Assembly (NCBI GenBank): GCA_963674945.2
Contig: CAXXWQ010000003.1
Span: forward strand, 224,001-288,000
Direction: 5' to 3'
DNA: 64,000 bases
Origin: an uncultured Desulfosarcina sp.
GTDB lineage: Bacteria; Desulfobacterota; Desulfobacteria; Desulfobacterales; Desulfosarcinaceae
The position numbers and the translations under genes are program-made. Below the pieces are notes generated by a model that saw nothing but the letters and a program-made list of their open reading frames with translations, did no database searches and was not told the origin of the DNA. Below, piece by piece: positions 27,263 to 49,285 of this stretch (the first letter of the stretch is position 1; each line of letters begins with the position of its first letter).

Positions 27263-27281
27263 CTGCGCAAGGTGTTTGATT

Positions 27282-28586: not shown

Positions 28587-28695
28587 CATCGACGGACACC
28601 ACAATACGCTGCTGACTTCTGGTTTTGCAAAACGTGTTTTTCAGCATGGTACCGTTCATGTAATACTCTTCCCTTTTTATGTTTGAATACAACTA
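28587..28695 (-). pseudogene. Remnant of a DUF1329 gene 5' end (RBS, ATG at 28659 and degenerate signal peptide)
   Basis: Minus strand TTCAAACATAAAAAGGGAAGAGTATTACATGAACGGTACCATGCTGAAAA closely matches 25209-25259 (KREEYY-MNGT.LK.T). Confidence 0.7.
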
Positions 28696-28789
28696 GTAAA
28701 TCTGCAAGTCGGACCGATGTAAACTTCATCATGGGTTCTTCCTTCAAGAGATAAATGCCCATTTATCAAATTGAAATACTAAATCCATT

Positions 28790-29335
28790 TGAAAACCGTG
28801 ATCTTGGTCGGTGTTAAAGATTTAGGAACTCCAAAAAGGCTCAGCACCTCTTCAAGGGCATTGACACAAAGAACAGGTTCCAATAATATATTGGAAGGTT
28901 TTGCGGCTGTGCCAAAACAGGATCGCCACAAGATTCATGATTCCGCGTTCCATGGTAATGTATGTGATATCGTCGGTTGAGGGTCAACCTCGGTAGCAAA
29001 CAGGGATGCGCTTTTTGCTGTGGGCGAGGCCCGGCGGTCTGTGATTTTGGGACAAATTGCTTCCCAATTGCCATCGCATAGTAGACGCTGTACTTTCTTT
29101 TCGATAAACGGTAATGTCTTGACGCTTTCGTTGGCGATGGATCGTTCGACTACCGGAAGATGAGTTTTCAGGCGCAATTCATCAATCTTTCGATGCGTTC
29201 CCAGATCTTCTTTTGTAGACTGTAAGCAATAATCGTACGACGAACGCTTAACAGCCAATATTTTGCATTGCAGGGAAATGGTCCGCTTCAGTTCCTTGGC
29301 TTGAATCATTACTTCGCGTCGTTCTGGGGATAGCT
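28790..29335 (-). pseudogene. Degenerate IS3-family transposase (OrfB) fragment
   Basis: Frameshifted pieces: ISLQCKILAVKRSSYDY, KKVQRLL..EAICPK, STDDITYITMERG..LVAIL.W.SRK, CVNALEEVL..FG.P, IFNTDQ. Confidence 0.75.
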
Positions 29336-29683
29336 GCCGTGAACCGCAACGGAAATCGTGGCGTAATGTATCAACGATCAGGATGAAAATGCCGTTTTTG
29401 AGTTTACACCTGCCGGGATTTTTTTATTTATTGTATTCAGAAGACATCAAGCAGTATGGCTTCAGCGTCAGTTCATTGATCGAAAATGATATCGATTGGC
29501 ACCAGGTATTTCGACAAACTAGGATTAGGATTGAACCTTCAATTTTCCGATACTCTCAAAGGCCGGCTCCCCTTTTTGATTTAAGAGGAGAGTGTATAGC
29601 CATCATATAGCGGGTCGCGACACTGTTTCTTTTGAGCTGTCGTATTCATTGTAATTAAAACATGAAAGAGGGAGGAGAGTTAG

Positions 29684-31060: not shown

Positions 31061-31090
31061 CAGGACGTGAGAAAGCATGTGAGACACGTA

Positions 31091-31132
31091 TAAAAAGAGA
31101 AGGTCGGTAAAAATACCGACCTTCTCTTTTTA
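31091..31132. terminator. Bidirectional rho-independent terminator between converging DUF1329 genes
   Basis: TAAAAAGAGAAGGTCGGTA-aaaa-TACCGACCTTCTCTTTTTA; homologous to 26645-26683. Confidence 0.8.
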
Positions 31133-31152
31133 CGAACCCAGAGGCTGTCACT

Positions 31153-31318
31153 ATGGAAAAATTCGTATTATATGTATATCCCCACTTTCATATGAAACGA
31201 TTTCAAAACGATTTGGCCCACATGTTATACAGAAAAAAATTGATATTGGTGAAACACTTGGGGATCTTCTAATCCAGATTAACGGACAACAACCAAATCG
31301 CATGGAAGAAAATCTCTT
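31153..31318 (+). pseudogene. Truncated, frameshifted moaD copy
   Basis: MEKFVLYVYP / YETISKRFGPHVIQKKIDIGETLGDLL aligns with the N-terminal half of 26832..27134. Confidence 0.75.
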
Positions 31319-32071
31319 CAACGATAGCGATTACCGCCGGCCCAGTCTTCGCAGATTTTGAACTGTGAAGTAGTCTTCCGGCACCTCTTCGTAACTTTCG
31401 GGAGGTAACCCGTTGACCCATCCATTTGCGACCCAAAAGTCAACCTGGAAATCAAAAAGAAAGTACTGGGCGATTCGGTATACAGGAACGTCGTAATGTT
31501 GTACGCCGGTTGAATATGAGGTTTTCCATAGATTTCCACGCGTATCGTACATGTCCTTGACGCCAATCAGCCATGTGTCTTCATCCTGGTAATAAACCCT
31601 TTTGCCATACATATGCCGAGCACCTTTTTTCAAAGTCGCGACGTTTTCCCATACCCGGTGAAGCTCCCAGCGCATGTATTCCGGATTGGGATGATGTGGT
31701 GTGTGCATAACATCCCAATCCGGAAGCAAGTTAATCTGGTTGTTGTTATACGGTATAAACATCTCTTTTTTCTCTTTTGTTAAAACCCAATCAAACCTGT
31801 CGAGTTTGCCCCTGAACATCCAGCCATCGTCCATGCAGCCAATGCCGCCGCCAGTACTATCGATTCCATCATAAAACATGTTGGGGTTCCGGCGCACCCT
31901 GCGCATTCCCGGTATATAAGAATAGCCGATAGAGTCCTTCGTCTCATAATTCGCCGGGTCTTTCATGAGATAAATTTCGCCCTCGTGACCAGTCATTGTC
32001 ATGTTAATCATCGCCCCAAAGACATAGTCGTATATATCTACTGGTTCATTTAATGGGCTCTCAAGTTTATA

Positions 32072-33822
32072 CCTGAATTTTGCACGCAATTAGCTTTAAT
32101 TGGCCACGGTGGCCAATTTTTTCAAAATGACGAAGAGTTCGTTTTCTACTCTAACACATGATCGTTGCCTTTAGTGTGAAGTATACGGTTTGCACGTGTT
32201 TCGTTTAACTGCCCATATACAAAGGAAATTGTCGTGAAAAAAAATTCTTGCATGATATTTTCCCGAGTTACGCAGACGTTCAACATGCCACTTGTCTCCA
32301 CGGCTTCGGTTTCAATCGCGCTTGATCCAGGAAGTCGAGAAAATGGATCATCGCGGGCGTTCTCGCATCGTGTACGGAGAACTTGACCTTGTCACGGTTT
32401 TGATCTTTGACAACTTTTGCGGCAATGAAAAGCAGCTTCAACCTGGCGATCCGGATTGTATTGGATGCCACCGTTTTTAAATGCGGCATCTTTTTTCTGT
32501 CCTGGCTCATGGCGGCAAGCATCTTGATGTAACGCCAAATGTTATACGACAGCACTACAAGTTGAAAGAACGCATAATTGTTTTTGAACTTTGCTGATGG
32601 GATGGCCTCAAGCCCTTCACGTTTGGCCTCACCCACCAGGTTTTCAACGTCAGCGCGTTTATCATACTTGCTGACCACCTCATGGGCCGGCCCTGAAAGG
32701 TTCGTGCAGAATATCCGGTATGTATAGTTGTCGTCTTCAAAGAGTAGGCATTGCACTTGCTGGTTTGAAGTTGATTTGGCTTTCGGTATACGCATGGCCA
32801 CAAACCGGCACGGGGTATCCCAACCAAGGGGCTGATAGACGCAGCTGTTATACTCAACATCCTTGCGTTTCCAGGGCCGATACCAACCTCTCGGATCAAA
32901 GGGCGGGTCGCATCTCTTGTTGGCGATGATGAAGTCATAGCCGCAGTGTCTTGCAGTCTGGACACTTTCCCAGCTCAGGAACTCTCCATCGGCCCGCAGC
33001 AGGACTTGGCGAACACAACCGGGTAAATGGGATTTTGTCTGGAGGATAAAGGCAGCGGTCTGTTTGCCACTGAGTGTTTCACCTTTTCGAAGCTTTCCGA
33101 TAAGACACTCCCGGGTCTGCTCAATGAAGCACAGCACCGGACGGTAACCTTTCTTTCCCCGGTTTTTGGTGTTATGGCCTTTCCTGCCTCCTTGCTGATT
33201 GCCGTACAGCGTCTCGACGGTGGTGTCGATATCGATGCATATCCGGTAATAATTGAAACCCAGTTGTTGCCACACCCGTTCTCGCAGAATGCTCATGAGC
33301 TTCTGAAGGGACTGGGCTTGGTTAATTCCCAAGCTGTCAAGGTATCGCCAGAAGGTGCTCGACACCGGCAACTTTGTCAGTCGGAAAAATCCACACAGCA
33401 TGGCATCGAGTCGGATGTAGGTAAAATGCCAGATTCTGTTAAAGCCTATAAACAGTAGCATCAGAAGTCCTGCCACCATCGAATAGTGGCCCAGCTTTGG
33501 CTGCCGGACAGGCGCATGATAGGTGGAGTTAAATATTTGTTTGAAATCGATCAAATCGAAAAATTTGATCATCGCTAAAAGCCCGCCAAATGGACTTAGT
33601 TGCTCGCTGCATGTCTCATGCGGCGTAGAAGCGTTGATTTTTCTGGCCTTGGCAGCGTTTTTCTTAAACCCTTTGTTCTTGCGGTTTTTACGGCTTTTTG
33701 ATTTACTTGATTTTACCATCTGGGTACCTCCTGTTTTTATTGTGGAAGCATGTCACCTCCCTTTATAACAGGATTCCCAGATGGTTTCTTCCTTATTTAT
33801 GATTCGTCGTGCAAAATTTAGG
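32072..33822 (-). mobile_element. IS1380-family insertion sequence (1751 bp), distinct from the one at 3070-4725
   Basis: IRs CCTGAATTTTGCACG (32072-32086) and revcomp CCTAAATTTTGCACG (33808-33822), 14/15 match; TSD TTATA at 32067-32071 and 33823-33827. Confidence 0.92.
32280..33719 (-). CDS. IS1380-family DDE transposase
   Basis: IDIDTTV, RADGEF and YDKRADVENLVGEAK motifs. Confidence 0.9.
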   Translation of the reverse strand: MVKSSKSKSRKNRKNKGFKKNAAKARKINASTPHETCSEQLSPFGGLLAMIKFFDLIDFKQIFNSTYHAPVRQPKLGHYSMVAGLLMLLFIGFNRIWHFTYIRLDAMLCGFFRLTKLPVSSTFWRYLDSLGINQAQSLQKLMSILRERVWQQLGFNYYRICIDIDTTVETLYGNQQGGRKGHNTKNRGKKGYRPVLCFIEQTRECLIGKLRKGETLSGKQTAAFILQTKSHLPGCVRQVLLRADGEFLSWESVQTARHCGYDFIIANKRCDPPFDPRGWYRPWKRKDVEYNSCVYQPLGWDTPCRFVAMRIPKAKSTSNQQVQCLLFEDDNYTYRIFCTNLSGPAHEVVSKYDKRADVENLVGEAKREGLEAIPSAKFKNNYAFFQLVVLSYNIWRYIKMLAAMSQDRKKMPHLKTVASNTIRIARLKLLFIAAKVVKDQNRDKVKFSVHDARTPAMIHFLDFLDQARLKPKPWRQVAC

Positions 33823-34866
33823 TTATACATATACACATTCCTTGCACTCATTTCCGTCGATCTACCGTTCGCTTGTATAACCCCGCCGCCCATAGAACAA
33901 ATTATAAATTCTACGCCTACCGGCCTGAGAACAAAATTTATCATGGCTTCGGCACCGCTTTTGGCAATAGGAAACGGAATCCCCTTACAGATATTTTTTA
34001 CGCTGCCATACTCATCGACAATTTCTCCCGTTAGGGCATTTTTATATGTCCCTTCATAATGTTCCTTGGAATATGCAGCGGACCTTCTGGTGGGATAGAT
34101 GTGCATCTTGAAGGTCTCCGGGTATCGTTTGAACAATCTCGCAATACCCGGAGATAGTTTGTCTTTATATTGATCGACATTTTGCGCTGTAATGGTAAAC
34201 AGGATCTTGTCTTCGGCAAACGGATTCGGGATGGGCAAGCCGGATTTGGCCACATAATCTATGCCTTCGGGAATTTTGGAGACTCCGCCGGTCCATTCAG
34301 GGATAGTCCCTTCCTTGTTTCCCGCACGCTCGCCTCCCATGGGATTTAATTCTGTTCTCAGTTTCGCTGCCTCTTCTACAGCCACTTTCGCAAGCGACGG
34401 CATTGCCGGAAACACCAGCAGGATCGCCAACATCCCGGACAATATTGTTCTACATGCGGTATTGTTCATGAAGTTCTCCTTTCCCCTTTTGTAATGACTT
34501 CTTCAAAATGAATAGGACAGTGTAAAGAAAATCGTGTTGCGGCCCGCAAGAAAATGGTCTTTCATTCAGGTTACGTACAATCTTTATGGGTTTTGTTTAA
34601 TTAAATTTTTTGAATAATATTCAGTTCAATGGCGATAGTCTCACGAGCAACGAGCATAGCGCAAAAGGTATGCATCGTTGGATATTTTCTGCGACGCTTT
34701 TCACGGTATTAGTGAACCGTGACAATCAATGGATCGTTAGGTTTTGCTCGTATCTGCTTTGAGTAAAAGACAATTTTCTTCATGAAATGAGAAATTTGGT
34801 TGTTTCACAGACGCCTCATTTTCTTTACAGCGCACATGCTTTCCCTGGTTCCTTTATGGTTGGCTA

Positions 34867-36240
34867 TTACCGCCTGCCCATTTTTCGTAAATTTTGAACT
34901 GAGAAGAAGTCTTCCGGTATATCACCATAAGAAATGGGCGGAAGACCGTTGAAAAAAGTAAATGCGGGATAAAAGTCCACCTGGAAATCAAAATGCCAGT
35001 ACTGGGTCAGATTGAATGCCGGAAGGTCATAAAATTGTGTTCCACAAGCATATGACAGTCGCCACAGGTTTCCGCGCTTATCGTATTTGTCGATAATGGA
35101 AATCAGCCACGAGTCTTCATCCAGATAATAATGTCTTTTACCGTATATATGGCGAGCACCTTCCTTGAGAGTCCCCACGACCTCCCATACCCGATGAAGC
35201 TCCCAACGGATATATTCCGGGTTGGGATGACGGGGTGTCATCATCGGTTCATAGCCAGGAAGCAAGTCGATTTTGTATGTGTTATAGGGGATGTACATCT
35301 CTTTTTTCCCGACAATTTTCCAATCAAACCGGTCTAGTTTGCCCTTCCACATCCACGATCCGTCACTGGTCCCGATGCCACCGGCGGAAGAATCGAGTCC
35401 ATCGTAAAACATGTTGGGGTTCCGGCGCACCCTGCGCATTCCTGGTACATAGGACCATCCGATCGCGTCGTTTTTCGTATAGTCTGCCGGGTCCATCATC
35501 AGATACAATTCACCCACGCGGCCGGCCATTGTCATTTCAACGATATTCCCATAAACATAGCTTTGTGGATCAAATTGTTCATCGCCCTCAATTTTATACA
35601 TAAAATAATCTTTTGCAGATTGATCACTCCATTTACCGTTGCCCTGTACAATGCCTCCTCCTACATAATATGTCCAACATTTTGCGCCGTGCGGTCTTAA
35701 TATGAAATTACACATAACCTCTATGCCGCTTTTGGGGATTGGAAACGGAAACCCTTTGGTAAAATTACGTACACTGCCATATTCGTCGATACACTCTGCC
35801 GTCAAGGCATTGCTATACATTCCTTCATAATATTTTTCGCCGTATGCGGCGGATCTTCTGGAGGGATAGACGTGAATCTTGAAGGTATCCGGGTATATTT
35901 CGAACATCTTCAATATACCCGGGGATAATTTGTCTTTATATTGGTCTACATTCTGCGCTGTAATGGTAAACAGGATCTTGTCTTCGGCATACGGATCCGG
36001 GTGAGGCAATCCGGATTTGACCTCATAATCGATGCTTTCGGGAATTGTTGAAAGTCCGCCGGTCCAGGCAGGGATGGTTCCTTCTTTATTTCCCGCCCGC
36101 TCGCCTCCCATGGGATTGAATTCTGATTTCAGTTTTGCTGCCTCTTCAGACGTCACTTTTGAAAAGGCTGGTGTTGCCGTACCCAACAGTAGAATCACCG
36201 ACATCAAAAAGAATAAGGTTTTACCGATAGTACCGTTCAT
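34867..36240 (-). CDS. DUF1329-family secreted protein, paralog 4
   Basis: 457 aa; same motifs as paralogs 1 and 2; AAGGAG RBS. Confidence 0.88.
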   Translation of the reverse strand: MNGTIGKTLFFLMSVILLLGTATPAFSKVTSEEAAKLKSEFNPMGGERAGNKEGTIPAWTGGLSTIPESIDYEVKSGLPHPDPYAEDKILFTITAQNVDQYKDKLSPGILKMFEIYPDTFKIHVYPSRRSAAYGEKYYEGMYSNALTAECIDEYGSVRNFTKGFPFPIPKSGIEVMCNFILRPHGAKCWTYYVGGGIVQGNGKWSDQSAKDYFMYKIEGDEQFDPQSYVYGNIVEMTMAGRVGELYLMMDPADYTKNDAIGWSYVPGMRRVRRNPNMFYDGLDSSAGGIGTSDGSWMWKGKLDRFDWKIVGKKEMYIPYNTYKIDLLPGYEPMMTPRHPNPEYIRWELHRVWEVVGTLKEGARHIYGKRHYYLDEDSWLISIIDKYDKRGNLWRLSYACGTQFYDLPAFNLTQYWHFDFQVDFYPAFTFFNGLPPISYGDIPEDFFSVQNLRKMGRR

Positions 36241-36714: not shown

Positions 36715-37251
36715 TTATGCCAAGCCATGCTTTTTGAGATGTCGATCGACCGCTTCAAAGTACTCTTCGTGTCCATTAACATATGGTCCTTGCGACCCGA
36801 TTGCTTCTTGGAGGAAGACACCGTAATCGTAGTCAGCGACAAAAGTTTGCCAGTTTGTAATTTCATAATTTTCATTGGTTTCGACAAAACCAGTAGAGTA
36901 AAAACTCCACTCTTCACCGGTATCCACGTGATGTCCGGCGAAATGTGTTCGCATAACGAAACCATTTTCGGATGGCCAGCAGTTGAATTCTTTTGGTGCC
37001 CAATCGGGAAACTTGACTGAATAAGAAAGTGCTTCCATGGTCGCGTAGGTGGCCACATCTACGACCATTCCTCCTAATTTTACAGTATTTTGGCGTCCTC
37101 CGGTAAAATATGGTGACCAGAATATGGCGTCCTCCGCGAACTTCCATTCCTCATATTTTTCTCCATCTTTTACGACTAGACGCTTGTAAGCATCACGGTA
37201 GGCTTCGGCCATTCGTCGATGTTTGGCGACCCGTTCCTCAACCTTTGACAT
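36715..37251 (-). CDS. Hypothetical protein, probable SnoaL/NTF2-like fold
   Basis: 178 aa; GGAGG RBS; FAEDA.F..P and F.ET.E..EI..W pattern typical of NTF2-like proteins. Confidence 0.6.
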   Translation of the reverse strand: MSKVEERVAKHRRMAEAYRDAYKRLVVKDGEKYEEWKFAEDAIFWSPYFTGGRQNTVKLGGMVVDVATYATMEALSYSVKFPDWAPKEFNCWPSENGFVMRTHFAGHHVDTGEEWSFYSTGFVETNENYEITNWQTFVADYDYGVFLQEAIGSQGPYVNGHEEYFEAVDRHLKKHGLA

Positions 37252-37295: not shown

Positions 37296-38108
37296 TTAAC
37301 ACTCCGGTAATTCCTGACGTAGATTATTGCCCAATAAGGGTTTCAAATTATCTTTTATAAAAACAGGTTTTCCAGCCTTATCCGCACATTTGACGATCGC
37401 CCGGACCCATTCTACCTTCGGGGGCTTATAAGGTTTAGTCTGACTTCCTATGATGATCCAATCCGCTTTCGGAACAATACTCGGGCCGAACGCCGGAGGC
37501 AGTTCCATCACATCCTCGAGCAGGGGCTCGAAGGAGAGGTATTTCAGTTTGGCCTTCACTCTACCACTGAAATAATACCACCATGCGTGATAAGCGGTCC
37601 GTGCGTCGCAAACAGTAGACCCTATCCAACAATTGTCTGGAAAGGGAGAACATTTTGTTAAATTCCACGGCCGCTTGGTAAGAAAATAGAAACGGTGCTG
37701 AGGATTGGATCTGATTGCTTTAAATATCTCCCTTTGCCAGTCATAAGGAATCCATTCGGCAAACATTTCGCACATGTTTCCTACAAAGATACCTTTTGGC
37801 TTCCTTTGCCGATTACGAATTACACGGCCTCTTCTTTCTCCGATACACAACGATTTTTTCCCCCGCATTTCTTTCAGCCGTTCAGGCCAGAAACGAGGAT
37901 AAAAAGGATCGGCCAAATGCTGTCTGCGATTTGGATCATCATTTGAAGGTAAGTTTTTATTCGCCAAGAATCTCGTTTTCAAACGCCCGTTTGCTATCTT
38001 CCGAGCATAGCAGTACGCGCAACCTACAAGGCAGCCGGTTATTGGATTCCAGCTATACCCCTGGCTACCATCCGGATTTTTTACCCATTCGACTTTGGTC
38101 CTGTTCAT
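37296..38108 (-). CDS. DUF5131 (phage Gp37/Gp68-like) radical SAM-like protein
   Basis: TKVEW...SWNPITGCLVGCAYCYA, FLTKRP, SFEPLLE, DWIIIG and PVFIKDNL motifs. Confidence 0.85.
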   Translation of the reverse strand: MNRTKVEWVKNPDGSQGYSWNPITGCLVGCAYCYARKIANGRLKTRFLANKNLPSNDDPNRRQHLADPFYPRFWPERLKEMRGKKSLCIGERRGRVIRNRQRKPKGIFVGNMCEMFAEWIPYDWQREIFKAIRSNPQHRFYFLTKRPWNLTKCSPFPDNCWIGSTVCDARTAYHAWWYYFSGRVKAKLKYLSFEPLLEDVMELPPAFGPSIVPKADWIIIGSQTKPYKPPKVEWVRAIVKCADKAGKPVFIKDNLKPLLGNNLRQELPEC

Positions 38109-38195: not shown

Positions 38196-38885
38196 TTATT
38201 TATTTCTTTCCACCCACCGTTCCATCTTGCCAGCCATCAGCGCCTTGACCTTTTCCAGTGCCTCGAAGGCGGTTTCGCCGTAAGTGTCGGCGCCGATCTC
38301 GTCACACCACTCGGGCGTCATTCCCCATCCGCCGGTGATATAGATCACGTCGTCTCTGACGCCGGCTTCGACCATGGCCTTGTGGATGACACCGCAATAC
38401 GGCGTCACCGGACCGATGATGGCCGAGGCGCCTACGATGTCTGGCTTGTACTTCTTGATCGCCGCAACGAAATCGTCGGCCGACTTGTTCTCTCCGATAT
38501 CGATGGACTTGATGCCTGCACCGGAAAAGAAGGCGGAGACGATTCTCTTGCCGACGTTGTGAAGATCGCCTTCTACCGTGCCGATGATCATCACCTTATC
38601 CTCCGGCTTCCGATTCATTATGGAGGCTTCGACATCCGCTGTCGGCAGCAACTTCTCCATGGCGTCGTTCATGATCTGTCCCGAGATCATCAGGTCGCTC
38701 ATGAACCGGTCATTGGCTTCGTACTCATCGCCGATAATGGTCAACCCGGGGCTTAACCCCTTAACAATGACATCCAGGGCAGGAATCTTGGCATCCATGC
38801 ACTCCTGAACCAGCTGGGCGACCAGGTCGTCATCCAGATCGATAATCGCCTCTTTTAGTTTCTCGAGTATTTCTTCATTTGCCAC
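38196..38885 (-). CDS. Corrinoid (cobalamin-binding) methyl-carrier protein, module 2
   Basis: Cap domain (GLSPGL.IIG); DxHxxG motif GTVEGDLHNVGK; GTG start. Confidence 0.92.
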   Translation of the reverse strand: MANEEILEKLKEAIIDLDDDLVAQLVQECMDAKIPALDVIVKGLSPGLTIIGDEYEANDRFMSDLMISGQIMNDAMEKLLPTADVEASIMNRKPEDKVMIIGTVEGDLHNVGKRIVSAFFSGAGIKSIDIGENKSADDFVAAIKKYKPDIVGASAIIGPVTPYCGVIHKAMVEAGVRDDVIYITGGWGMTPEWCDEIGADTYGETAFEALEKVKALMAGKMERWVERNK

Positions 38886-39001
38886 TGGGATCCGAATCCT
38901 TTAATCGAAGTCGAAGCACGTCAGTGCTTCCGGCGTTCGGGTTGAAGCCGGGTGCAAAACGCCCGGCTTGAATAAAACGAATCAAAAATTGAGATTTCGG
39001 G

Positions 39002-40252
39002 TTATTCATACCTTCCGTATTTTTTCTGCGTTTTGATCGCGGCGTCAATGTGCTCCGCCGGCGCCCAATACGGCGGGAAGATATCGATCGTGAATTTGGG
39101 CATGTGCTTGTGCTTGAGGACGATATCCTTCACCTCTTCCTCAATGGCTGAGATTGGGCCGTTTTCCATGATTTCATCATGGCCGGAAAAACTCATGAAA
39201 CATTCATGTTCGTGATGCCAATCCGCCACCGCTTCCAGGTCACATTCACCGCGTCCGCCGGCACCACCATTCCACATTTCTCCTGCAGGCCCAAGTGCGC
39301 CTTGCTCCCAGACAATCGGAAGCGCTTTCATCGTCATGCCTGTGAGGGGATAACCATGGGATAAGTGGATCGGTCTTCCGAGTTTTTCTTTTGCATAATC
39401 ACTCAGCGCTTTGCCGAGTGTTCTATAAGAATCAAGCATCCATTCTTTGCCACCCAACGGGTAGCTGTCCCACATCGCTCACATCCATATCCCGTCTGGT
39501 TCACACTCATCGATCATGGCTTTACCGAATCCGATGAGAAACTCGGTGGCGATCTCATGGCCTTTCTTTATTATCTCCGGTTGCTTTCGCAGGAAATTGG
39601 GAAACTCCATCCAACCCAACATCCCCATCATCATCAAAAGGTCCGGACCTGGGCAGATTGAAGTCCAAAGCGGCATGGGTATCTTGTACTCGGTGAGTAT
39701 TCGTCTGAACTCCCGGTTGGCCCAGATATAACCTGGATACAAGCCATCCTTGCGAGTATCCGGCACGGGCATGCCCTCTAAATCATCGATGGTTTTGATC
39801 GGCATGGGCGGTTCGATAATCGGGTTTCCATAGTCGATCATGATCGACTGACCGCCCCACATATCCTCGCCGTAATTGATGTTATGAAAGTTGCAATAGT
39901 CCAGTCCGAAACGGGCAGCCGTTGCCAGATGGGTCAATATCCACAGCTTCGGATACAAAAGCGTATCCACCGGCTTTATCGCATCGGAAGAGTGATCCAT
40001 GGCATGACTGATGTAGACGGAGGTCGTCGCAAGGTACGTCAACGTGCGATCCTTATCCTCACCATACATCGTCGCTTTCCAGCGCTCGAGAGGGGTCATC
40101 CCTCCCTCATCCTTAATATTGTTGAGAATCTTTTCACAGTAGCGATCTATCAGTACTTTTTCTTCACGGCTCCACTCAAAATCCAGCTTATCGAGATGCG
40201 TGTTGTACCAATAGGGCGCCGGTTTAATCGGTTTTCTTCCTTGAAAAGCCAT
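39002..40252 (-). CDS. UroD/MtaA-fold corrinoid methyltransferase, module 2; candidate selenoprotein (in-frame TGA at codon 258)
   Basis: ORFs 39479..40252 and 39002..39475 are in one frame (TGG ATG TGA GCG ATG); read-through gives 416 aa colinear with paralog 44075..45295; SECIS-like hairpin follows the TGA. Confidence 0.75.
39449..39465 (-). promoter_or_regulatory. Candidate bacterial SECIS element
   Basis: GCUACCC-GUU-GGGUGGC, a 7-bp stem with one G-U pair, at +14 to +30 after the UGA; the loop begins GU at +21. Confidence 0.65.
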
Positions 40253-40277
40253 AACTCACCGACCTCCTTTTAAATAA

Positions 40278-40619
40278 TTACATCGTTGCAGGCAACACCT
40301 TCATCAAGGCCTCATCGGATTTCCGAGACTTCATTTTACCCTCGGTATACGCTTCCATTGGGGGGACTGTTTTATTATTAATACCTACCCATGTGTCACT
40401 GTCCATTTCAAGGACGCCGTCGGCGGCATCCTCATCGATCTTTTCTTCGCAGTTTTCCACCGTTCCGTCCATGGCCATCTTTAACAGCCAGCCGGTGTTC
40501 AGATCGGAAATGACGAACTGGATAGAGCCACCCCAATCCGCTGAAGAAAATGGGCCTACTTCGTTAATCTTTTCGACCATCGTCTGCATGGCATTTGCCG
40601 CCTCTTCCATCGTTGCCAT
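40278..40619 (-). CDS. SCP2 sterol/lipid-binding domain protein
   Basis: 113 aa; IQF.ISD...ADGVLEMDSDTW..I......PMEAY..GKMK pattern. Confidence 0.8.
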   Translation of the reverse strand: MATMEEAANAMQTMVEKINEVGPFSSADWGGSIQFVISDLNTGWLLKMAMDGTVENCEEKIDEDAADGVLEMDSDTWVGINNKTVPPMEAYTEGKMKSRKSDEALMKVLPATM

Positions 40620-40638: not shown

Positions 40639-41841
40639 TTATGCTTTGGTGATCCCGGCCTCCAATGCCAGTTCCAAGATGTCCAGTGTATCTATATCGG
40701 AGCCTGCTGCATCGATACCATCGATGATGTTTCTCTTGCAGGAAGGGCATGCGGATAGGACGACTTCTGCGCCGACTTCTTCGGCCTGGGCCGCCTTGTC
40801 CATTCCAATCTCCACCGCCAAGTCGTAGTTGATACCCTTGACGCCACCACCGCCGCCACAACACCAGGTTTTTTCACGGTTTCTGACGAATTCCACAATC
40901 TCGATTCCTGGGATGGCTTCGAGAATCTTCCTCGGCTCGTCAAAAACCCGCATGTCACGCCCCAGTTCACAAGGATCGTGATAGACCACCTTCTTTTTCA
41001 CCTCCTTGGTAAACTTCACCTTACCTTGCTCGATCTGCTCTGCCAGTATCTGAACGATGTGTTTTGCCTGGATCTTGTAATCGTCGCCCTCCAACTTCAG
41101 CATCTTGGGATAATCCTGAACGAGGATCCGATAGCAACCGGCGCAGGAAGCGATCACCTTCTTGCCCTTCATCAGCTCATAATTATGCCGCATCAAATCC
41201 CTTGCCAAAAACAGGTTTCCCATCATCAGCATGGGATTGCCGCAACAATGCTCTTCCTCTCCCAGGATGTTAAAGGGGATGTCCAGTATGTTGAGGATCT
41301 TTCCCGTTGCCTGAGCGATCTCTATTTCCCGAAAACTCGACAGGCACCCGACGAAATAGGTAGTATCGGCATTGGGATCCAGTTTGATGTCGGCATCCTC
41401 CGCCCACTCGCCTCTCTCCTCGTTGGGATAGCCCATTACATTCTGTGATTTCTCAACGGTATCGCAGAACATGTGGACCTCATCGGGAAGTTTGGCACCG
41501 GAAGAATATAGTTCGGCTCTTATTGCCTTAACGATGTGCGGATGATCGATCAGCGGGCCAAAGGTTTCCATATCCACGGCACCGCAGGTTTCACGACAGT
41601 TTCCACAGAGAAGACACTCGTAGATCGCCTGGACCGGAGCATCGGTGATATCGTATCTACCCTCTAAGACGTTCCTGCCTACCTCTACCCTGCCAATGGG
41701 GAAATTGGTCCAGAATCCCGCCGTATGCTCACCCGCAGGGCACACCCTGAACACCTTCTGTTCCAAACTATACTTTGAACGACATACGCCACATCGGACG
41801 CACCTCGTCACGCCTTTACGATATTTCTCTAACTCACCCAT
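40639..41841 (-). CDS. Fe-S oxidoreductase (GlcF/HdrD-like; ferredoxin + two CCG domains), module 2
   Basis: CVRCGVC, CLLCGNCRETC, CCGNP, SCAGC, YHDPC, CCGGGGG and SACPSC motifs. Confidence 0.9.
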   Translation of the reverse strand: MGELEKYRKGVTRCVRCGVCRSKYSLEQKVFRVCPAGEHTAGFWTNFPIGRVEVGRNVLEGRYDITDAPVQAIYECLLCGNCRETCGAVDMETFGPLIDHPHIVKAIRAELYSSGAKLPDEVHMFCDTVEKSQNVMGYPNEERGEWAEDADIKLDPNADTTYFVGCLSSFREIEIAQATGKILNILDIPFNILGEEEHCCGNPMLMMGNLFLARDLMRHNYELMKGKKVIASCAGCYRILVQDYPKMLKLEGDDYKIQAKHIVQILAEQIEQGKVKFTKEVKKKVVYHDPCELGRDMRVFDEPRKILEAIPGIEIVEFVRNREKTWCCGGGGGVKGINYDLAVEIGMDKAAQAEEVGAEVVLSACPSCKRNIIDGIDAAGSDIDTLDILELALEAGITKA

Positions 41842-41853: not shown

Positions 41854-43308
41854 TTACGCAAAGAATACACCGGGATTCATGATGTTATTGGGGTCCATAG
41901 TTTTCTTCATGGTCTTGACAAAGTGATAGAATTCCGGCGTCCAATACCTTGCCTGGACCCTGGACATGTGACCCTGGGTGGCCTCCATCACATATCCGCG
42001 CTTAGCAGATTCTTCCAGGAAATCCGCCCACATTTCATAAACTTCCCTGTGAAGCTCTTTATCGGTTTCATCCAGAAACGGGATAAAGGTTGTCATCCCA
42101 TAGCCTGGCCCCGATGACAGAAGGCCGGTGATCAACTGCATTTTGTCGTCGATGCCTCTGTCCTTCAGCCGTTTGAAGAAAAACTCGCGGCCCCACTTGT
42201 AGTTATCCAGAATGTCTCTTCGCGATACGATGAGCTCCAATAACGGTACGCTGCCCATCGTGGCCATATTGTTCATGTCATGGGCAAAATCGAGAAAGGT
42301 CTGGGTGAAAGTCACCACACCCGGCGTAGCCTGTGTTCCTCCGTGCCGTGTGTAACATTCGTCGGCAATCTTGTACTTTAAATCGACCTCTTCCTCGCTG
42401 AGGCCGATATTGATGAAAAACAAGATCCACTTTTTTGGCCCCCCGGGATCGATCATATCGATGTACTCCGGACCGAGCAGCATCCCACTGGTGTATGGCT
42501 GTATATACAAATAGGGGTCCACATTCCACAATTCACTATAGGCTGCAAACGCTTGATCCACCGTATCGAAAAAGTAAGCGTTGCCTTTGCGCGCTTTGGG
42601 CAGTGGGAACATGCGATAGGTTGCCTCGACCTTTATTCCGAACATCCCCCCGTCACCGACGAATAGACCGGCCATGTCCGGGCCATGCATTCCCCTGGCC
42701 CAGCTGTTGCCTCGATACTGGCTAAGCGTCCCCTGGCCCGTTCCGGTGTCCACGATTTCCCCATTGGGCAGAACCACCTTTACGCCATTCAGGTAATGAT
42801 AATTCCATCCGATGGAGTAACTGTACCGGCCGAATCCCCCACCCGGTTCCCCGCTGATGTGACCGCCGAGTGTGTTGATATAGTGGGGAACGCCGGCAGT
42901 GTGGATATCATATCCCTTCTCGTTAACTTTACTGGCCAGCTCGCCCAGGGTTATGCCGCACTGAGCGGTTACCGCCGTATTTTCCTCATCGATCTCAAGT
43001 ACTTTGTCCATTCGCCGCATGTCTACGATAATAGCCCTTCCCGGTTGTCCCTTGGGCACACCGGAAATCGAGGCTTTTCCTCCCATGGGAACCAGAGGGG
43101 TGCGCGTCTGGTTTGCCAGCCTGACAATCTCGACAACCTCCTCCGTTGAACCGGGGCGTGCTACGACACCCTGGGCACTTGCCGGTGGAACACAACTTGT
43201 ATCCTTGGTATAGGATAAAAGAACGGAATAATCATCCGAGACATATGTGGAACCAACGATCGACTGCAATTCCTGATATAGCTCGTGATGTGCTCTAGCT
43301 AATACCAT
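41854..43308 (-). CDS. FAD-linked oxidoreductase (GlcD/VAO-PCMH family), module 2
   Basis: RPGSTEEV, PMGG, TLGG, GPDMAGLFVGDGG.FGI and MDPNNIMNPG motifs. Confidence 0.9.
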   Translation of the reverse strand: MVLARAHHELYQELQSIVGSTYVSDDYSVLLSYTKDTSCVPPASAQGVVARPGSTEEVVEIVRLANQTRTPLVPMGGKASISGVPKGQPGRAIIVDMRRMDKVLEIDEENTAVTAQCGITLGELASKVNEKGYDIHTAGVPHYINTLGGHISGEPGGGFGRYSYSIGWNYHYLNGVKVVLPNGEIVDTGTGQGTLSQYRGNSWARGMHGPDMAGLFVGDGGMFGIKVEATYRMFPLPKARKGNAYFFDTVDQAFAAYSELWNVDPYLYIQPYTSGMLLGPEYIDMIDPGGPKKWILFFINIGLSEEEVDLKYKIADECYTRHGGTQATPGVVTFTQTFLDFAHDMNNMATMGSVPLLELIVSRRDILDNYKWGREFFFKRLKDRGIDDKMQLITGLLSSGPGYGMTTFIPFLDETDKELHREVYEMWADFLEESAKRGYVMEATQGHMSRVQARYWTPEFYHFVKTMKKTMDPNNIMNPGVFFA

Positions 43309-43371: not shown

Positions 43372-44034
43372 TTACACACCCCTTTGGGAACGGATTGTCT
43401 TGACCTTGCCTATGGCATCGACGGCGTTTTCGCCGAAGGCGTCGGCCCCAACTTCGTCGCACCACTCCTGCGTCATTCCCCAACCACCGATTAGATAGAT
43501 CACATCATCCCTTATCCCGGCTTCCACCAAGGCTTGATTGATCACTTTGCAGTATGGCTTCAGCGGTCCGAGGATCGCCGAGGCGCCTACGACCAGTGCA
43601 TTATTCTCTTTTACCGCCTTTACGAATGCTTCGGCCGGTTGGTTCTCTCCAATATCAATTACCTTGTATCCTGCGCCGAGAAACAAAGAGGAAACGATTC
43701 GCTTGCCGATGTTGTGATCGTCACCTTCCACGGTACCAATCACCAGCGTATCCCCCGAGTATTTATCATCTCCAGCGCTGGCTTCTATGGCGGGACGCAG
43801 TATCGGCATGGCATCGCCCATCAGTTCTCCTGCGATCACCATGTCGGCCATGAACCTCTCACCGGTCTCGAAACCTTCGCCAATGATGGTCAAACCGGGG
43901 CTCAATCCGTCCATGATCATATCCATAGGCGCCAGATTCTCCGATAGACCATCTTTGAGCAGTGTATGAATGTTCTCCTCATCGAGGTCGATCATCGCCT
44001 GTTTCAGGCCGGCTAAAATTTCTTCCTTTGGCAT
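43372..44034 (-). CDS. Corrinoid methyl-carrier protein, module 1
   Basis: GTVEGDDHNIGK; paralog of 38196..38885; ATG 44034 after AAGGAG. Confidence 0.92.
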   Translation of the reverse strand: MPKEEILAGLKQAMIDLDEENIHTLLKDGLSENLAPMDMIMDGLSPGLTIIGEGFETGERFMADMVIAGELMGDAMPILRPAIEASAGDDKYSGDTLVIGTVEGDDHNIGKRIVSSLFLGAGYKVIDIGENQPAEAFVKAVKENNALVVGASAILGPLKPYCKVINQALVEAGIRDDVIYLIGGWGMTQEWCDEVGADAFGENAVDAIGKVKTIRSQRGV

Positions 44035-44074
44035 CCTTCGGTACTCCTTCTTACCGTTTTGGTCTGGAAGTCGA

Positions 44075-45295
44075 TTAGTATTTACCGTATTTCTTTGCGG
44101 CGGCAATGGCAGCATCGACGTGCGCCTGCGGGGTATGGTAGTCAATCGCCCCGATCCCTATGGAGAACTTGGGGTGATCCTTTCCATATTCACACCGCAT
44201 TTTAACATCCTCTTCGATATCTGCGGTCGGTCCATCCAGTACGGTCTTGTCCGAAGAGAGGCAGATACATTGAATGTCGTACTCTTTAGAGCTATCGACT
44301 GTCTTTATATGATCCAATCCGCCACCGGTAACCCATCCTTTCAGGCCTTCCGGTCCCATTATCCCTCTTTCAACCACGTGTGGGAGCCACACCGCATCGG
44401 CGGCCACACCAGCCGTGTAATAGACGGGGATGTGGGCACCCACGGTTTTGCAGACCTTTTCATGGTGGTCCAGTGTCCACTCATTTCCCTTTACCGGCAA
44501 CCAGCCGAGCCCGGCAGAAATCCAGAGCGCGTCGGCTCCCATCTCATGGGCGGCAAGACATGAATTAATGTAAAGTTCGTCCGCCATCTCCACGCACTTC
44601 TTAAGCAATTCAGGGTTCTTACGTGTAAGCACCATCAATCCGCTGATACCCGTCATGCCCAGCATCACGATGGCAACCGGTTCGCAAAGAACACCGACCA
44701 TCATCGGCAGAGACTCGGACAAATTAAACTCGTCAAGGAATTTCCTGCACTCTCTTACGGCCCACAGGTATCCGGGGTAGAGGCCATGCTTCCTATGGTC
44801 GGGAATTTCCAGCCCCTCCAGATCCTCCATGGTCTTTATCGCAGGGTCTCCCACCACGACCGGGTTGCCATAATCGATCAACTTAGAATTTGCTCCCCAC
44901 AGATCTTCTGTATAACCGGTTGTATAGGGGAAAATCCAATCCGCTTTGAATCTGGCCGTAAAGGCAAAGTGCTGCTTTACCAGCAGTTTTGGATTTCTGT
45001 ACCCGTCTATCGGCTTTAGCGCATCTGCATTGGAATCCAGTGTTCGAATGGCGTAGACATTAAAAGGCGCCGTTGCAACGAAACAACGGTCTTTTTCCTT
45101 GCCTTCCTGTGTAGCAATCCACCGCTCACGCGGAGTCATCTCTTCTTCTTCGATATTTTTATGTATCTTCTCGCAATAGCGCTCGATTTCCAGTTTCTCT
45201 TCGGCAGACCACTCGAAATGGAGTTCATCCAAAGGCGTGTCATACCAATCGGGCGCATTTTGCATTCTGATCCGTTCTTTAGCCAAGGCCTTCAC
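44075..45295 (-). CDS. UroD/MtaA-fold corrinoid methyltransferase, module 1
   Basis: MTPRERW, IKTMEDLEGLEIPD, NPELLKK, GPTADIEEDVK and TPQAHVDAAI motifs; GTG start after GGAG. Confidence 0.85.
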   Translation of the reverse strand: MKALAKERIRMQNAPDWYDTPLDELHFEWSAEEKLEIERYCEKIHKNIEEEEMTPRERWIATQEGKEKDRCFVATAPFNVYAIRTLDSNADALKPIDGYRNPKLLVKQHFAFTARFKADWIFPYTTGYTEDLWGANSKLIDYGNPVVVGDPAIKTMEDLEGLEIPDHRKHGLYPGYLWAVRECRKFLDEFNLSESLPMMVGVLCEPVAIVMLGMTGISGLMVLTRKNPELLKKCVEMADELYINSCLAAHEMGADALWISAGLGWLPVKGNEWTLDHHEKVCKTVGAHIPVYYTAGVAADAVWLPHVVERGIMGPEGLKGWVTGGGLDHIKTVDSSKEYDIQCICLSSDKTVLDGPTADIEEDVKMRCEYGKDHPKFSIGIGAIDYHTPQAHVDAAIAAAKKYGKY

Positions 45296-45348: not shown

Positions 45349-45795
45349 TTACACCTCTTCTTTGGCGATCTCCGTGATGTCTTTCTTCATCCACTCGGCG
45401 GCTTCGGTAGAGTCTCCCTTCACCAGCCGGGTCATGTCGTCATCCAGGTCGGACGGCTCGATAATCACCAGCCAACCATCGCCATAAGGATCTTCGTTGA
45501 CCAGCGTCGGATTGTCCAACACCGCCTGGTTGGCCTCCACGATCGTTCCGCTTACGGGTGACAACAATGGTCCGACCCACTTGGCCGTCTCCAGAGTTCC
45601 GAATCGTTTTCCCTGCTTCACTTTCTTGCCGGCTGGGAAAAGCCTCATGAACTTGAGTTCTCCGGCCTGCTTCTGGGCAAAGTCGTCTACGCCGACTCTG
45701 ATTTTGCCGTCTTCGTTTTTCGCCCAGCTGTGCGCCGTGTCCTGCGGCCAGTAGTGAAGATCCTTGTCTACCCAATACTTACCAATCTTCGGCAT
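45349..45795 (-). CDS. Glycine cleavage H-like lipoyl-carrier protein
   Basis: H.WAK..D..IRVGVDDFAQ, lipoyl lysine in LETAKWVG, SPVSG and VNEDPYGDGWL motifs. Confidence 0.88.
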   Translation of the reverse strand: MPKIGKYWVDKDLHYWPQDTAHSWAKNEDGKIRVGVDDFAQKQAGELKFMRLFPAGKKVKQGKRFGTLETAKWVGPLLSPVSGTIVEANQAVLDNPTLVNEDPYGDGWLVIIEPSDLDDDMTRLVKGDSTEAAEWMKKDITEIAKEEV

Positions 45796-45807: not shown

Positions 45808-47004
45808 TTATGCTTTTGCGATCCCAGCTTCGATACACAGTTCAAGGACGTCCAACATGTCCAGATCGGAACCGGCGGCCTTGATGCCGTCATTGATGTT
45901 GGTCTTGCAGGATGGACAGGCGGATACGATTACCGTGGCGCCGACTTCATTGGCCTGTGCCACCTTGTCCGTAGCGATCTCCACGGAAAGGTCGAAGTCG
46001 AATCCTTTGACACCGCCACCGCCGCCACAGCACCAGGTCTGCTCTTTGTTACTGAAAAACTCCACCACCTCGAGTCCGGGAATCGCGGCAAGGATCTTCC
46101 TCGGCTCATCATACGTCTGCGTGTCTCGACCCAGTTCGCAAGGATCGTGATAGACCACCTTCTTTTTGACCTCTTTGGTGAACTTCACCTTGCCCTGCTC
46201 GATCTGCTCGGCCAGTACCTGAACGATGTGTTTGGGTGTAATCTTGTAATCGTCGCCTTCCAGTTTCAGAATCTTGGGATAATCCTGAAGGAGAACGCGA
46301 TAGCAGCCGGCACAGGAGGCGATCACCGTCTTGTCCTTCATTCTTTCATAGTTGTGACGCATCAGATCGCGGGCCAGCATCAGGTTGCCCATCATCAGCA
46401 TGGGATTGCCGCAGCAACTCTCTTCCTCTCCCAGTATGTTAAAGGGGATGTCCAGAATGTTGAGAACCTTACCCACCGCCTGGGCGATCTCCACTTCCCG
46501 AAAGCTGGAAAGGCATCCGACAAAATAGGTGGTGTCGGCATTGGGATCCAGTTTGATGCCCGCATCTTCCACCCAGTCGGCGCGCTCTTCGTTGGGAAAT
46601 CCCATGACGTTCTGGTTTTTTTCAATGGCCGTACAGAACATGTCGACGTGCTCCGGTAACTCGACCCCGGAGTTGAACAGGTCCGCTCTCAGGGCCTTGG
46701 TGATATGGGGCTGAATGATCCTGGGCTTGAATGTCTCCAGGTCCAGGCACCCGCAGGCCTGCCGGCAGTTGCCACAGAGAAGACAACTGTATGCATATTC
46801 GGCCAGCTTCGGGGTTATTTCAACGGTTCCCTCGAGAACGCCCCTGGCCATCTGATTCCTTCCACGGGATGAATAAACCTCGAAACCTTCGGTATGTTCC
46901 CGAATGGGACAGATCTTCCTGTCGCCCCAGGGGCTGTATTTATGAACGCAGACTCCGCATCGAGTGCACCCGTAGATACCTTTTACGTGTTTTTCTAATT
47001 CCAT
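45808..47004 (-). CDS. Fe-S oxidoreductase (GlcF/HdrD-like), module 1
   Basis: Same Cys motifs as 40639..41841. Confidence 0.9.
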   Translation of the reverse strand: MELEKHVKGIYGCTRCGVCVHKYSPWGDRKICPIREHTEGFEVYSSRGRNQMARGVLEGTVEITPKLAEYAYSCLLCGNCRQACGCLDLETFKPRIIQPHITKALRADLFNSGVELPEHVDMFCTAIEKNQNVMGFPNEERADWVEDAGIKLDPNADTTYFVGCLSSFREVEIAQAVGKVLNILDIPFNILGEEESCCGNPMLMMGNLMLARDLMRHNYERMKDKTVIASCAGCYRVLLQDYPKILKLEGDDYKITPKHIVQVLAEQIEQGKVKFTKEVKKKVVYHDPCELGRDTQTYDEPRKILAAIPGLEVVEFFSNKEQTWCCGGGGGVKGFDFDLSVEIATDKVAQANEVGATVIVSACPSCKTNINDGIKAAGSDLDMLDVLELCIEAGIAKA

Positions 47005-47037: not shown

Positions 47038-48480
47038 TTATAGATCCCAAATTCCTGGATTCATGATGTTATTCGGGTCGAATGCCTTTTTAAGCTTTCT
47101 CATGAAATCGAAACGCTCTTTGGGCCAGAATTTGGCCATCATTCGCGTCCCCCAGCCCTGATGACAATCCGGGTACCATCCGTTGGAACATGCAAATTCG
47201 GTAGCATCCAAGAAGAGTTGCTGCATTACTTGTCGCGCGTGCGGGTCCTCTCCCTTGGTCCATACGGGCATGGAAACGATCCAGGCGGCCGAACCGGTGG
47301 GAATCATGGTCTCGTTGGAATTGAACGCGACACCTTCCTTGTTGAGCCTGTCGTAGATAAAGTCTCTCATCCCTTGATGGCACGCCGCCACCTGAGAACG
47401 GGCGATATAATACTCAAAAAACGCCCATGTACCCAGGCTGCCGAATTCACCCATCTCCCGGTGTCGCTGCCCATCGAGGGATTGTTTCTTCCAGTCTTCC
47501 GCCGCCGCATGCGTGGCTTCTTCAATTGAATGTTTCGACGCCAGGTCTTTAATGATCTCCAATTTGGCGTCCGTCTCTTTTTGCGTGGTTCCTTTGGCGA
47601 TAATGATGCACATGTGTTTTTTCATGCCCATCATTTCCTGGAATATCTTCACCGGCACGATGATCGCCATGCAGTAATAAGGAAGCGGTTCGACAACACT
47701 CAGCTCCCGGCAGTAATCGTATGCCTGATCCCAACTGTCGCAGTCGAAAGCCAGCGGTACTCTTATGGGAGTATCCTTATACATGCGATACGTGGCTTCC
47801 ACCTTGATCCCGAATGTGCCGGCATCGCCGATAAACATCCCGGTAAGATCCGGGTTTCCCGGATAACGATCGTAGATCATATCGCAGTGAACGTTGCTCC
47901 CCGCACCGGCGCCGGTTTGTACGATCGATCCATCGGGAAGAACCACCTTCACGCCGGGAATATGCGTGGCGTTAAATCCTGCGACAAACAATTCCATTCC
48001 GCCGCCACCGCCGGCAAAACCGGCGATTTGCCCGCCAAGCGTGTCCGGATAAAAGGGTTGAAACGCAGTATGGACATCCCATCCCCGATCCCAAATATAG
48101 GTGGAGAATTCGGATGTGGTCATGCCGGCTTCGGCGGTGACCGTCAGATTGTACTCGTCGAAGTTCAGCATCTTGTTCATGCGCGTCATGTCGACCACGA
48201 TGCCTTTTCCATGCAGCCCCTTGGGAGTGCCGTAGAAAGATGCCCTTCCCCCGCTGGGCACGATGGGAATCTTGGTAGCGTTGGCCAGTTTTACGATATC
48301 CACGACCTCGTCCGTGCATGAGGGACGTACCACGATCCCCTGCTTGTTCGGTGGTAGCGGACTGGTATCCCTGCTATAGGTCTCCAACACCACATCTTCG
48401 TCAGTGACATATTTAGGGCCGACGATTCCTCCCAGATCATAGTACAATGGGTGATGTGCTTTCCGAACGACGACAGCCAT
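47038..48480 (-). CDS. FAD-linked oxidoreductase (GlcD/VAO-PCMH family), module 1
   Basis: RPSCTDEV, PSGG, TLGG, PDLTGMFIGDAGTFGI and FDPNNIMNPG motifs; ATG 48480 after AAGGAGG. Confidence 0.9.
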   Translation of the reverse strand: MAVVVRKAHHPLYYDLGGIVGPKYVTDEDVVLETYSRDTSPLPPNKQGIVVRPSCTDEVVDIVKLANATKIPIVPSGGRASFYGTPKGLHGKGIVVDMTRMNKMLNFDEYNLTVTAEAGMTTSEFSTYIWDRGWDVHTAFQPFYPDTLGGQIAGFAGGGGGMELFVAGFNATHIPGVKVVLPDGSIVQTGAGAGSNVHCDMIYDRYPGNPDLTGMFIGDAGTFGIKVEATYRMYKDTPIRVPLAFDCDSWDQAYDYCRELSVVEPLPYYCMAIIVPVKIFQEMMGMKKHMCIIIAKGTTQKETDAKLEIIKDLASKHSIEEATHAAAEDWKKQSLDGQRHREMGEFGSLGTWAFFEYYIARSQVAACHQGMRDFIYDRLNKEGVAFNSNETMIPTGSAAWIVSMPVWTKGEDPHARQVMQQLFLDATEFACSNGWYPDCHQGWGTRMMAKFWPKERFDFMRKLKKAFDPNNIMNPGIWDL

Positions 48481-49285
48481 TCTAAACCTCCTTGTGCAAA
48501 AGTTACTTTTTTGAAAGCGCTGATTGGAACGATAAATGAAATTCAGTTTGCTGATTATTTGTCCTACGCCAACATTCACTGTATCTAAGGGTTACACGAG
48601 GTTCACCGGAAGCTTACCGATGGCATTTGATTTCAACTCCATAGTATTGGAAACCGAATGGGTGAATCATCAGAAAATCTTTTCTCGGCAAAAAGTGGTC
48701 GGCGACCTTTCTCAAAGGTCGCAACAATCGAAAAGGCATCATTTTCTGCTTGATTGCGCAACACCACAGTCGTGCGAAACATTGCCCCTTTCCGGTTTGC
48801 CTTTATCCCCCATGGTTCTGAGTAGATTCAATCCAAGGGTGGCGGGCAGAAGTCAGCTCAATTTTCGCCAATTCGTTTTGTAAATAAAAACGATTCATTC
48901 TCAAAGCCAACACTATACAATCGTATATGGCCATGTCAAGTTATTATGTCAATCTTTTTCTTATTTTTTTTGGCATTTTTCATTTTTAACAAATTTTCAA
49001 TCTATTATTGACAATTTTATATTTTTATTATTGTCATATTGTAATCTTCTACTAACCAATTTATCGTTAATAGCAATTGACACACCATATTTATTGCCAT
49101 TTTTAAATTTTTTCACTATTTTTGATGTTTTTTTACATGTTTATTCGAATTTATTTTGTCATTTTTAATTAGTTAGATGAGCTTTATTGAATAAAAGATG
49201 GCAGTTATGGTATAGGAATTTTTTACATTTCACGACACACGACAATTGATTCAAACTGTATTATCACGGAGGTTTATAAAATATA

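Follow-up and report, generated by a model that had tools for sequence, protein, structure and literature searches.

UGA codon 258 of a gene on the minus strand of the window, i.e. the whole 64,000-nt stretch of DNA that was analysed, very probably stands for selenocysteine (Sec) in a new selenoprotein family of known fold, within an uncharacterised corrinoid-lipoyl gene system. For the protein as a whole we favour, with a probability of roughly 0.6, a 416-residue selenoprotein with a UroD/MtaA barrel and Sec258 that would act as a corrinoid-coupled methyl or alkyl transferase. Observed are a lone in-frame TGA, a Cys/TGA column in the homologs, a covarying hairpin tied to the TGA, Sec genes in the genome, and an adjoining corrinoid gene.

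The gene and its reading frame

The gene has the following features:

39002-40252, (-), UroD/MtaA-fold gene, 416 codons plus TAA, with a lone in-frame TGA
40263..40268, (-), Shine-Dalgarno-like AGGAGG, 10 nt 5′ of the ATG
39884..39886, (-), codon of His123, position computed from the reading frame
39653..39655, (-), codon of Cys200, position computed from the reading frame
39479..39481, (-), TGA codon 258, putative Sec, final residue of model strand 254-258
39449..39465, (-), SECIS-type hairpin, 17 nt, 7 bp, GUU loop at +21..+23, covarying among TGA copies

The initial annotation had joined two open reading frame fragments across one TGA and had expected that pipelines would miscall the gene. 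Frame 40252-39002 indeed has its only stop at codon 258 (DGIWM-*-AMWDSYP on read-through), and the database record of the gene ends at 257 aa. The gap-free alignment across codon 258 to the UroD-fold paralog in the window was also seen, and the paralog has Ser (TCT) at this site. As a read check for sequencing error, a Logan contig of one public run spans 38688-39881 with 0 differing letters; the run is possibly that of the source sample, and the identity speaks against an assembly slip only. Given TGA or Cys at this column in homologs, and the identical contig, we reject a nonsense mutation or a sequencing error. Genome-wide reassignment of TGA is unsupported, since TGA recurs at one column only, together with the hairpin, and the selA and selB matches are stop-free. 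The single TGA with its downstream hairpin is a confirmed observation.

Codon 258 in paralogs and homologs

The source genome contains 15 copies of the gene (tblastn), with TGA at column 258 in five, TGY in nine, and TCT in one; two of the TGA copies are identical, as are some of the Cys copies. A protein search yielded 59 homologs. Of these, 32 stop exactly at residue 257, 24 have Cys, and three have Ser, in line with the initial expectation of Cys or TGA at this column; for most of the 32 truncated homologs, TGA is deduced from the protein end alone. In the rows with DNA, the stop is TGA in 15 of 15 cases and other stops number zero. The TGA rows originate from the source genome, a Chloroflexota MAG, and metagenome contigs (8 rows), so that the TGA is not a strain-specific mutation, as had initially been considered. 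Three GenBank MAG records end at the stop (MFC2017821.1, MFC1925667.1, MFC2017788.1), and Pro is aligned at column 258 in two loci of related genomes.

The sequence 3′ of the stop is conserved like that 5′ of it, with median pN/pS values of 0.49 and 0.40, respectively (uncorrected, from 91 non-independent pairs). No more than 6 of 14 copies have an ATG among the five codons after the TGA; in the window gene it lies two codons downstream. A dead or split gene is unlikely because conservation after the stop equals that before it and because so few copies have a nearby ATG. The family shows a single UGA in an open conserved frame, Cys homologs, and the UGA in unrelated genomes, as expected for Sec-encoding UGAs. 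Judged from the sequences, it is highly probable that UGA258 encodes Sec.

A hairpin that accompanies the TGA

The hairpin begins after a 13-nt spacer from the TGA, with the position and shape that had initially been proposed. Its fold stability alone is unexceptional (z −1.52): when the 71-nt stretch was shuffled 200 times, 11 of the products folded equally well. Of the 804 genomic TGAs that lie between long open stretches, 49 satisfy a loose hairpin criterion. These 49 include several that we assign by motif to known Sec genes. Another candidate TGA of the source genome (G000:C4:2429129) turned out to be the ordinary stop of dnaE.

It is the association of the hairpin with the TGA across homologs, not the hairpin itself, that exceeds chance. 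At least six of the seven pairs are formed in 12 of 13 distinct TGA contexts, versus 0 of 24 Cys contexts and 0 of three others. In the 13 distinct TGA contexts the stem (+14..+30) is paired to 94.5%, and four of the seven pairs vary on both sides, bearing out the covariation proposed as a check. None of 500 shuffles matches this and slid positions pair to 32-53%, in a control that ignores the relatedness of the sequences. The pairing couples amino acids (YPLG, YPLD, FPLG, FPLE). The exception is the TGA copy at G000:C4:656225, in which 3 of 7 pairs form at the usual position and a hairpin folds a few bases further downstream, a possible case of SECIS turnover.

The bSECIS terms given in the accessible part of PMC13188914 comprise a loop of 3-9 nt, a stem of 4-16 bp, G in one of the first two loop places, a spacing of 16-37 nt, and an MFE <= −7.5. 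The bacterial SECIS geometry claimed initially agrees with them: scored by a purpose-written script and not by bSECISearch, the window gene (MFE −9.9) conforms, as do 10 of 13 TGA contexts overall and 0 of 24 Cys contexts. The loop position is the same in two other genes of the source genome, selD and that of an octaheme cytochrome from a catalogued Sec family. An Hmc-like cluster (G000:C4:2871152) includes the gene of an octaheme tetrathionate-reductase-family cytochrome, a catalogued Sec family, in which a TGA accompanied by a 7-bp hairpin interrupts the frame.

Sec machinery and a second UCA tRNA

The source genome encodes selA and selD, the latter with a TGA of its own, along with two selB genes and two tRNAs with the anticodon UCA, so that the check for selA, selB, selC, and selD found all of them. 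One UCA tRNA is of the canonical tRNA-Sec type, with G73 and a GCCA end. The second (G000:C3:572702-572794), likewise with the anticodon UCA, combines A1:U72 with U73 and immediately precedes the second selB. An arrangement of selC* tRNA-Cys(UCA) with selB* is already described in the accessible text of PMC5389517; here, the selC*-type tRNA and the second selB (G000:C3:570751-572794) are found near a YedE-family selenium transporter gene. Because the second UCA tRNA is of the selC* type, Cys insertion at Sec codons is possible in the source organism, and in certain circumstances codon 258 may specify Cys. Given the selC*/selB* arrangement, dsrA, and acetyl-CoA synthase, the source organism would appear to be a deltaproteobacterial sulfate reducer. 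A second, divergent cysS-like gene with a 763-codon open frame was noted at G000:C1:209660-211018; it does not adjoin selB* and is no more than a candidate cysS*.

Fold, conserved residues, and family assignment

The structure model of the read-through protein is a UroD-type barrel with codon 258 at the end of strand 254-258, as the initial annotation had held for the UroD/MtaA fold. Residues 123, 200, and 258 each lie at or just past a strand end in the model. Cys200 is present in 32 of 32 truncated homologs and in 71 of the 84 rows of a wide alignment; 11 of 27 full-length homologs are without it, several of them from the clade found most often beside lipoyl genes. Position 123 is His in 32 of 32 truncated and in 4 of 27 full-length homologs. 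The wide alignment contains no further conserved ligand. The conserved Cys200 and His123 and the lipoyl-system context are additions to the initial annotation.

The read-through protein has zero matches in Pfam, including PF01208, although paralogs exceed the PF01208 cut-off. It likewise has no match to the MtaA/CmuA HMM (TIGR01463/NF040654), NCBIfam 20.0 has no model for it (one chance match, TraS, E 0.019), and a single-sequence PDB search with it found nothing. The window paralog scores 31.3 bits against the MtaA/CmuA HMM (cut-off 235.4). By sequence, the closest solved transferase is MtaA (PDB 4ay7, E 2.4e-25); a match to CdmB (E 4.5e-10) covers the C-terminal half only. By the sequence features tested, the protein is UroD-superfamily corrinoid-transferase-like and not MtaA/CmuA, Mlp, or HemE. 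Of the initial designation as a corrinoid methyltransferase, the fold and the corrinoid gene context stand, whereas the MtaA/CmuA cut-off is not reached and the His-Cys-Cys triad is absent. Transferase activity is predicted from fold and gene context.

Gene neighbourhood

The neighbouring genes in the window are:

47038..48579, (-), second FAD-linked oxidoreductase, opens the same-strand run
45808..47004, (-), second Fe-S/CCG-domain protein
45349..45795, (-), GcvH-like lipoyl-carrier protein
44075..45295, (-), UroD-fold paralog, 39% identical, Ser at column 258
43372..44145, (-), second corrinoid protein
41854..43308, (-), FAD-linked oxidoreductase, GlcD/VAO/PCMH fold
40639..41841, (-), Fe-S/CCG-domain protein, best NCBIfam match TfrB, below cut-off
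40278..40619, (-), SCP2-like small protein, homologs beside family genes in the Chloroflexota MAG and a metagenome contig
38196..38885, (-), corrinoid protein (B12-binding, B12-binding_2), directly downstream of UroD(TGA)
37296..38108, (-), DUF5131 protein, link to the system putative
36715..37251, (-), SnoaL/NTF2-like protein by language-model features, single copy in the genome, link putative

The order in the window is FAD oxidoreductase, CCG, GcvH-like, UroD(Ser), corrinoid, FAD oxidoreductase, CCG, SCP2-like, UroD(TGA), corrinoid. A corrinoid gene lies within about 1.2 kb of 13 of the 15 copies in the source genome; the tandem copies at C4:2157556 and C4:2158793 have no corrinoid or lipoyl match within 8 kb. 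The main cluster (G000:C4:678001-698000) contains several UroD-family genes and a corrinoid gene, plus MtgA-like, RACo, LpdA, LplA, and LipA genes; no MtgA-like or RACo gene was found in the window near the UroD(TGA) gene. The MtgA-like protein scores 386.7, which is under the MtgA family cut-off of 550. The order SCP2-GcvH-MtgA recurs in the Chloroflexota MAG, and family genes have LplA-LipA-LpdA beside them in one metagenome contig and in two genomes of the same order; the outside contigs are mostly short, and the absence of a gene there says little. FadL and DUF1329 genes lie near several of the source genome's copies.

The GcvH-like proteins retain a Lys in a motif that we take to be the lipoylation motif. 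They are of two types, one following FAD-CCG genes (45349-45795 of the window) and the other lying between SCP2-like and MtgA-like genes, the latter seen in two groups of bacteria (L060:6113-6583; L076:649-1113). At G000:C4:686998-693765, a UroD(Cys)-corrinoid / UroD(TGA) block is exactly duplicated in tandem, and further identical copies (C3:970938, C4:109739/2650395), some near transposases, were found. These result either from recent duplication or from an assembly effect (genome contamination 5.69%). Elsewhere in the window, four DUF1329 genes lie at 25196-36240 (14 DUF1329 matches genome-wide), one of which (31331-32089 and 33753-34469) is broken by a transposase (32280-33719). A molybdenum-enzyme cluster at 5535-18018 includes aldehyde oxidoreductase, Fe-S/CCG flavoprotein, SAM methyltransferase, radical SAM, AMP-binding, XdhC, and MobA-HD genes.

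Distribution and history

In a quick tree built from the sequence before column 258, 40 rows are united at SH-aLRT 100, 37 with a stop and three with Cys; three rows duplicate others. The Cys rows represent two source-genome genes that are nested among stop rows and keep 4 of 7 pairs, and on this topology are best read as reversions from Sec. Two truncated proteins, P0068 and P0069, fall outside the main stop clade and end just before column 258 (7 of 8 members of the P0068 cluster have 267 aa). They are possible independent Sec gains, judging from the protein ends alone.

In a sample of the class, 7 of 300 other genomes match, three of them strongly and none with TGA. The family was not found with the query at E 1e-10 in 400 further genomes of the source organism's phylum or in 400 genomes of the phylum of the Chloroflexota MAG, and a search of plasmids gave no match. 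Two genomes of the same order have SelB and no TGA copy. The family is rare and patchy, and multi-copy where present.

Proposed mechanism and alternatives

As a first step, SelB would bind the hairpin and Sec would be inserted, which is highly likely. Second, Sec258, Cys200, and His123 would probably lie at the barrel mouth and form the catalytic site in place of the MtaA zinc triad. Third, the protein would be the first methyltransferase, with a hydrophobic organic substrate as donor of the methyl or alkyl group and the Co(I) corrinoid protein as acceptor; RACo would keep the corrinoid active, the MtgA-like protein would transfer the group to tetrahydrofolate, and Wood-Ljungdahl oxidation would be coupled to sulfate reduction. 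By analogy, we regard this route from substrate via corrinoid and tetrahydrofolate to the Wood-Ljungdahl pathway as reasonably likely as a whole. A substrate-facing transferase is favoured because transferase, corrinoid protein, activase, and folate methyltransferase are the parts of demethylating systems in the accessible texts of PMC10418091 and PMC13222342. Genes for lipid-type transport and carriers hint at a hydrophobic substrate. Among substrate classes, we consider a sulfur-linked methyl group the likeliest, and the FAD/CCG pairs could oxidise the product.

The initial annotation had offered a metal ligand or an alkyl-accepting nucleophile as roles for Sec, and both are kept. In a fourth step, which we prefer tentatively, the selenolate would act as a covalent nucleophile in a pair with Cys200, and the pathway would have its thiol or redox partner in the GcvH-like protein, lipoylated and acting with LpdA. 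We place this chemistry before a zinc-ligand role, a close rival that is conceivable if somewhat doubtful, since His123 is not conserved throughout the family and a lipoyl system is available. The fourth step is weakened by the lack of Cys200 in several members of the lipoyl-adjacent clade.

If Sec were a metal ligand, His123, Cys200, and Sec258 would hold zinc at a new location for the activation of a thiol or thioether, the task of the His-Cys-Cys triad in MtaA, and the lipoyl genes would serve the FAD/CCG oxidoreductases only. Sec rarely serves as a zinc ligand, the scarcity of His123 in full-length homologs (4 of 27) means that the triad is not family-wide, and the alignment offers no other conserved ligand; we consider such a site unlikely. 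It draws support from the invariance of His, Cys, and stop in 32 of 32 truncated homologs, at or just after strand ends, and from the one GcvH type that always follows FAD-CCG genes. The accessible text of PMC10418091 also describes a His-Cys-Cys zinc in UroD-family S-methyltransferases.

Rather unlikely, too, is a reaction in reverse, from the corrinoid to a thiol (free or of dihydrolipoyl GcvH-like protein), or a reductive C-S/C-O cleavage with a lipoyl reductant. MtaA, the closest solved transferase, is a corrinoid-to-thiol enzyme, lipoyl genes co-occur across phyla, and 15 diverged paralogs could work in series. Yet the many paralogs suit many donor substrates, and MtgA-like protein, RACo, and corrinoid protein are the usual substrate-demethylating set in the accessible parts of PMC10418091 and PMC13222342. 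That UGA258 is read mainly as Cys, by the selC*-type tRNA and the second SelB, yielding a thiol enzyme by recoding, is very unlikely: the second tRNA matches selC* tRNA-Cys (PMC5389517, accessible text), but canonical tRNA-Sec with G73, selA, and selD are present, and the Chloroflexota MAG with TGA copies has one selB above cut-off. A true stop followed by a dead or separately made 157-codon open reading frame, to which the ATG two codons after the TGA and database halves listed as separate proteins might point, is hardly credible, given that codon and column agree across 13 distinct contexts drawn from metagenomes and two named groups, that a close ATG occurs in a minority of copies, that the stop falls within the barrel, and that the hairpin covaries.

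Returning to the selenoprotein with a nucleophilic Sec, a far-reaching joint reading can be formulated, which is unlikely to hold in all its parts. The UroD/MtaA superfamily would have in this family its first lineage of selenoenzymes, and an undescribed anaerobic pathway would start from it. A Sec-Cys pair would move methyl or alkyl groups among a hydrophobic substrate, the corrinoid, and a GcvH-like lipoyl arm, the lipoyl protein being a protein-bound counterpart of coenzyme M or a reductant that recycles a selenenyl-sulfide. Sec would have been gained once in the large clade and lost twice in the source genome, with maybe two further gains.

Novelty and significance

Table 1 of a May 2026 review (PMC13188914) lists 119 selenoprotein families, none of them PF01208 or MtaA-like, and the main text and four supplements of deep-Sep (PMC12013277) contain no uroporphyrinogen, URO-D, PF01208, or MtaA entry. 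Our literature searches gave no report of Sec in a UroD-family protein or of the gene set; further published candidate lists could include the family. It had initially not been recognised as a standard selenoprotein family, which agrees with its absence from Table 1 of PMC13188914 and from NCBIfam 20.0. The family thus appears, with good probability, to be undescribed as a selenoprotein.

To a catalogue dominated by thioredoxin-like folds, such a family would add a large TIM-barrel enzyme linked to methyl chemistry on B12. Its proteins are mis-annotated as fragments of 256-257 aa in at least 32 database clusters, including GenBank MAG records, and a simple HMM fix recovers them. The Sec, Cys, and Ser versions in one genome, with nested Cys copies that have lost the hairpin, are a test set for the contribution of Sec to corrinoid-linked transfer. 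In two groups of sediment anaerobes, lipoyl genes are conserved in association with those for corrinoid protein and folate methyltransferase, which points to an uncharacterised catabolic route.

Comparison with known systems

HemE has a catalytic Arg motif and a catalytic Asp. Neither is found in the protein described here, which is 11-17% identical to HemE, has Ile in the column of the catalytic Asp, and belongs to a multi-copy family with corrinoid genes. Compared with MtaA (PDB 4ay7; TIGR01463), the identity is 17% and about 50 N-terminal residues are extra. The His-x-Cys...Cys positions of MtaA are not conserved; instead, Cys200 and Cys/Sec258 lie on earlier strands, aligned to Met and Ala of MtaA. 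The accessible parts of the selenoprotein lists report no Sec in MtaA.

According to the accessible text of Kountz and Balskus (PMC10418091), type 1 mlp clusters resemble the present system in having several UroD-family genes, a corrinoid protein, and a reductive activase in Sec-capable anaerobes. The Mlps differ in keeping the His-Cys-Cys triad, their clusters are without a folate methyltransferase, whereas the main cluster of the source genome has MtgA-like and lipoyl genes, and no description of Sec within an Mlp was found in that text. The CdmB, OdmB, VdmB, MtvB, and MtoB systems share the set of transferase, corrinoid protein, folate methyltransferase, and activase genes (accessible text of PMC13222342), and this four-part demethylase set is complete in the main cluster. 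CdmB requires no zinc, as described there; systems of this type are distant in sequence, and that text describes no Sec or lipoyl partner for them. With respect to Sec in place of Cys in methyl-handling or B12-linked proteins, the family is like HgcA, arsenite methyltransferase, MduS, methylated-DNA-protein-cysteine methyltransferase, and BtuF (PMC13188914, Table 1), which belong to other domain families, none of them PF01208 or MtaA-like.
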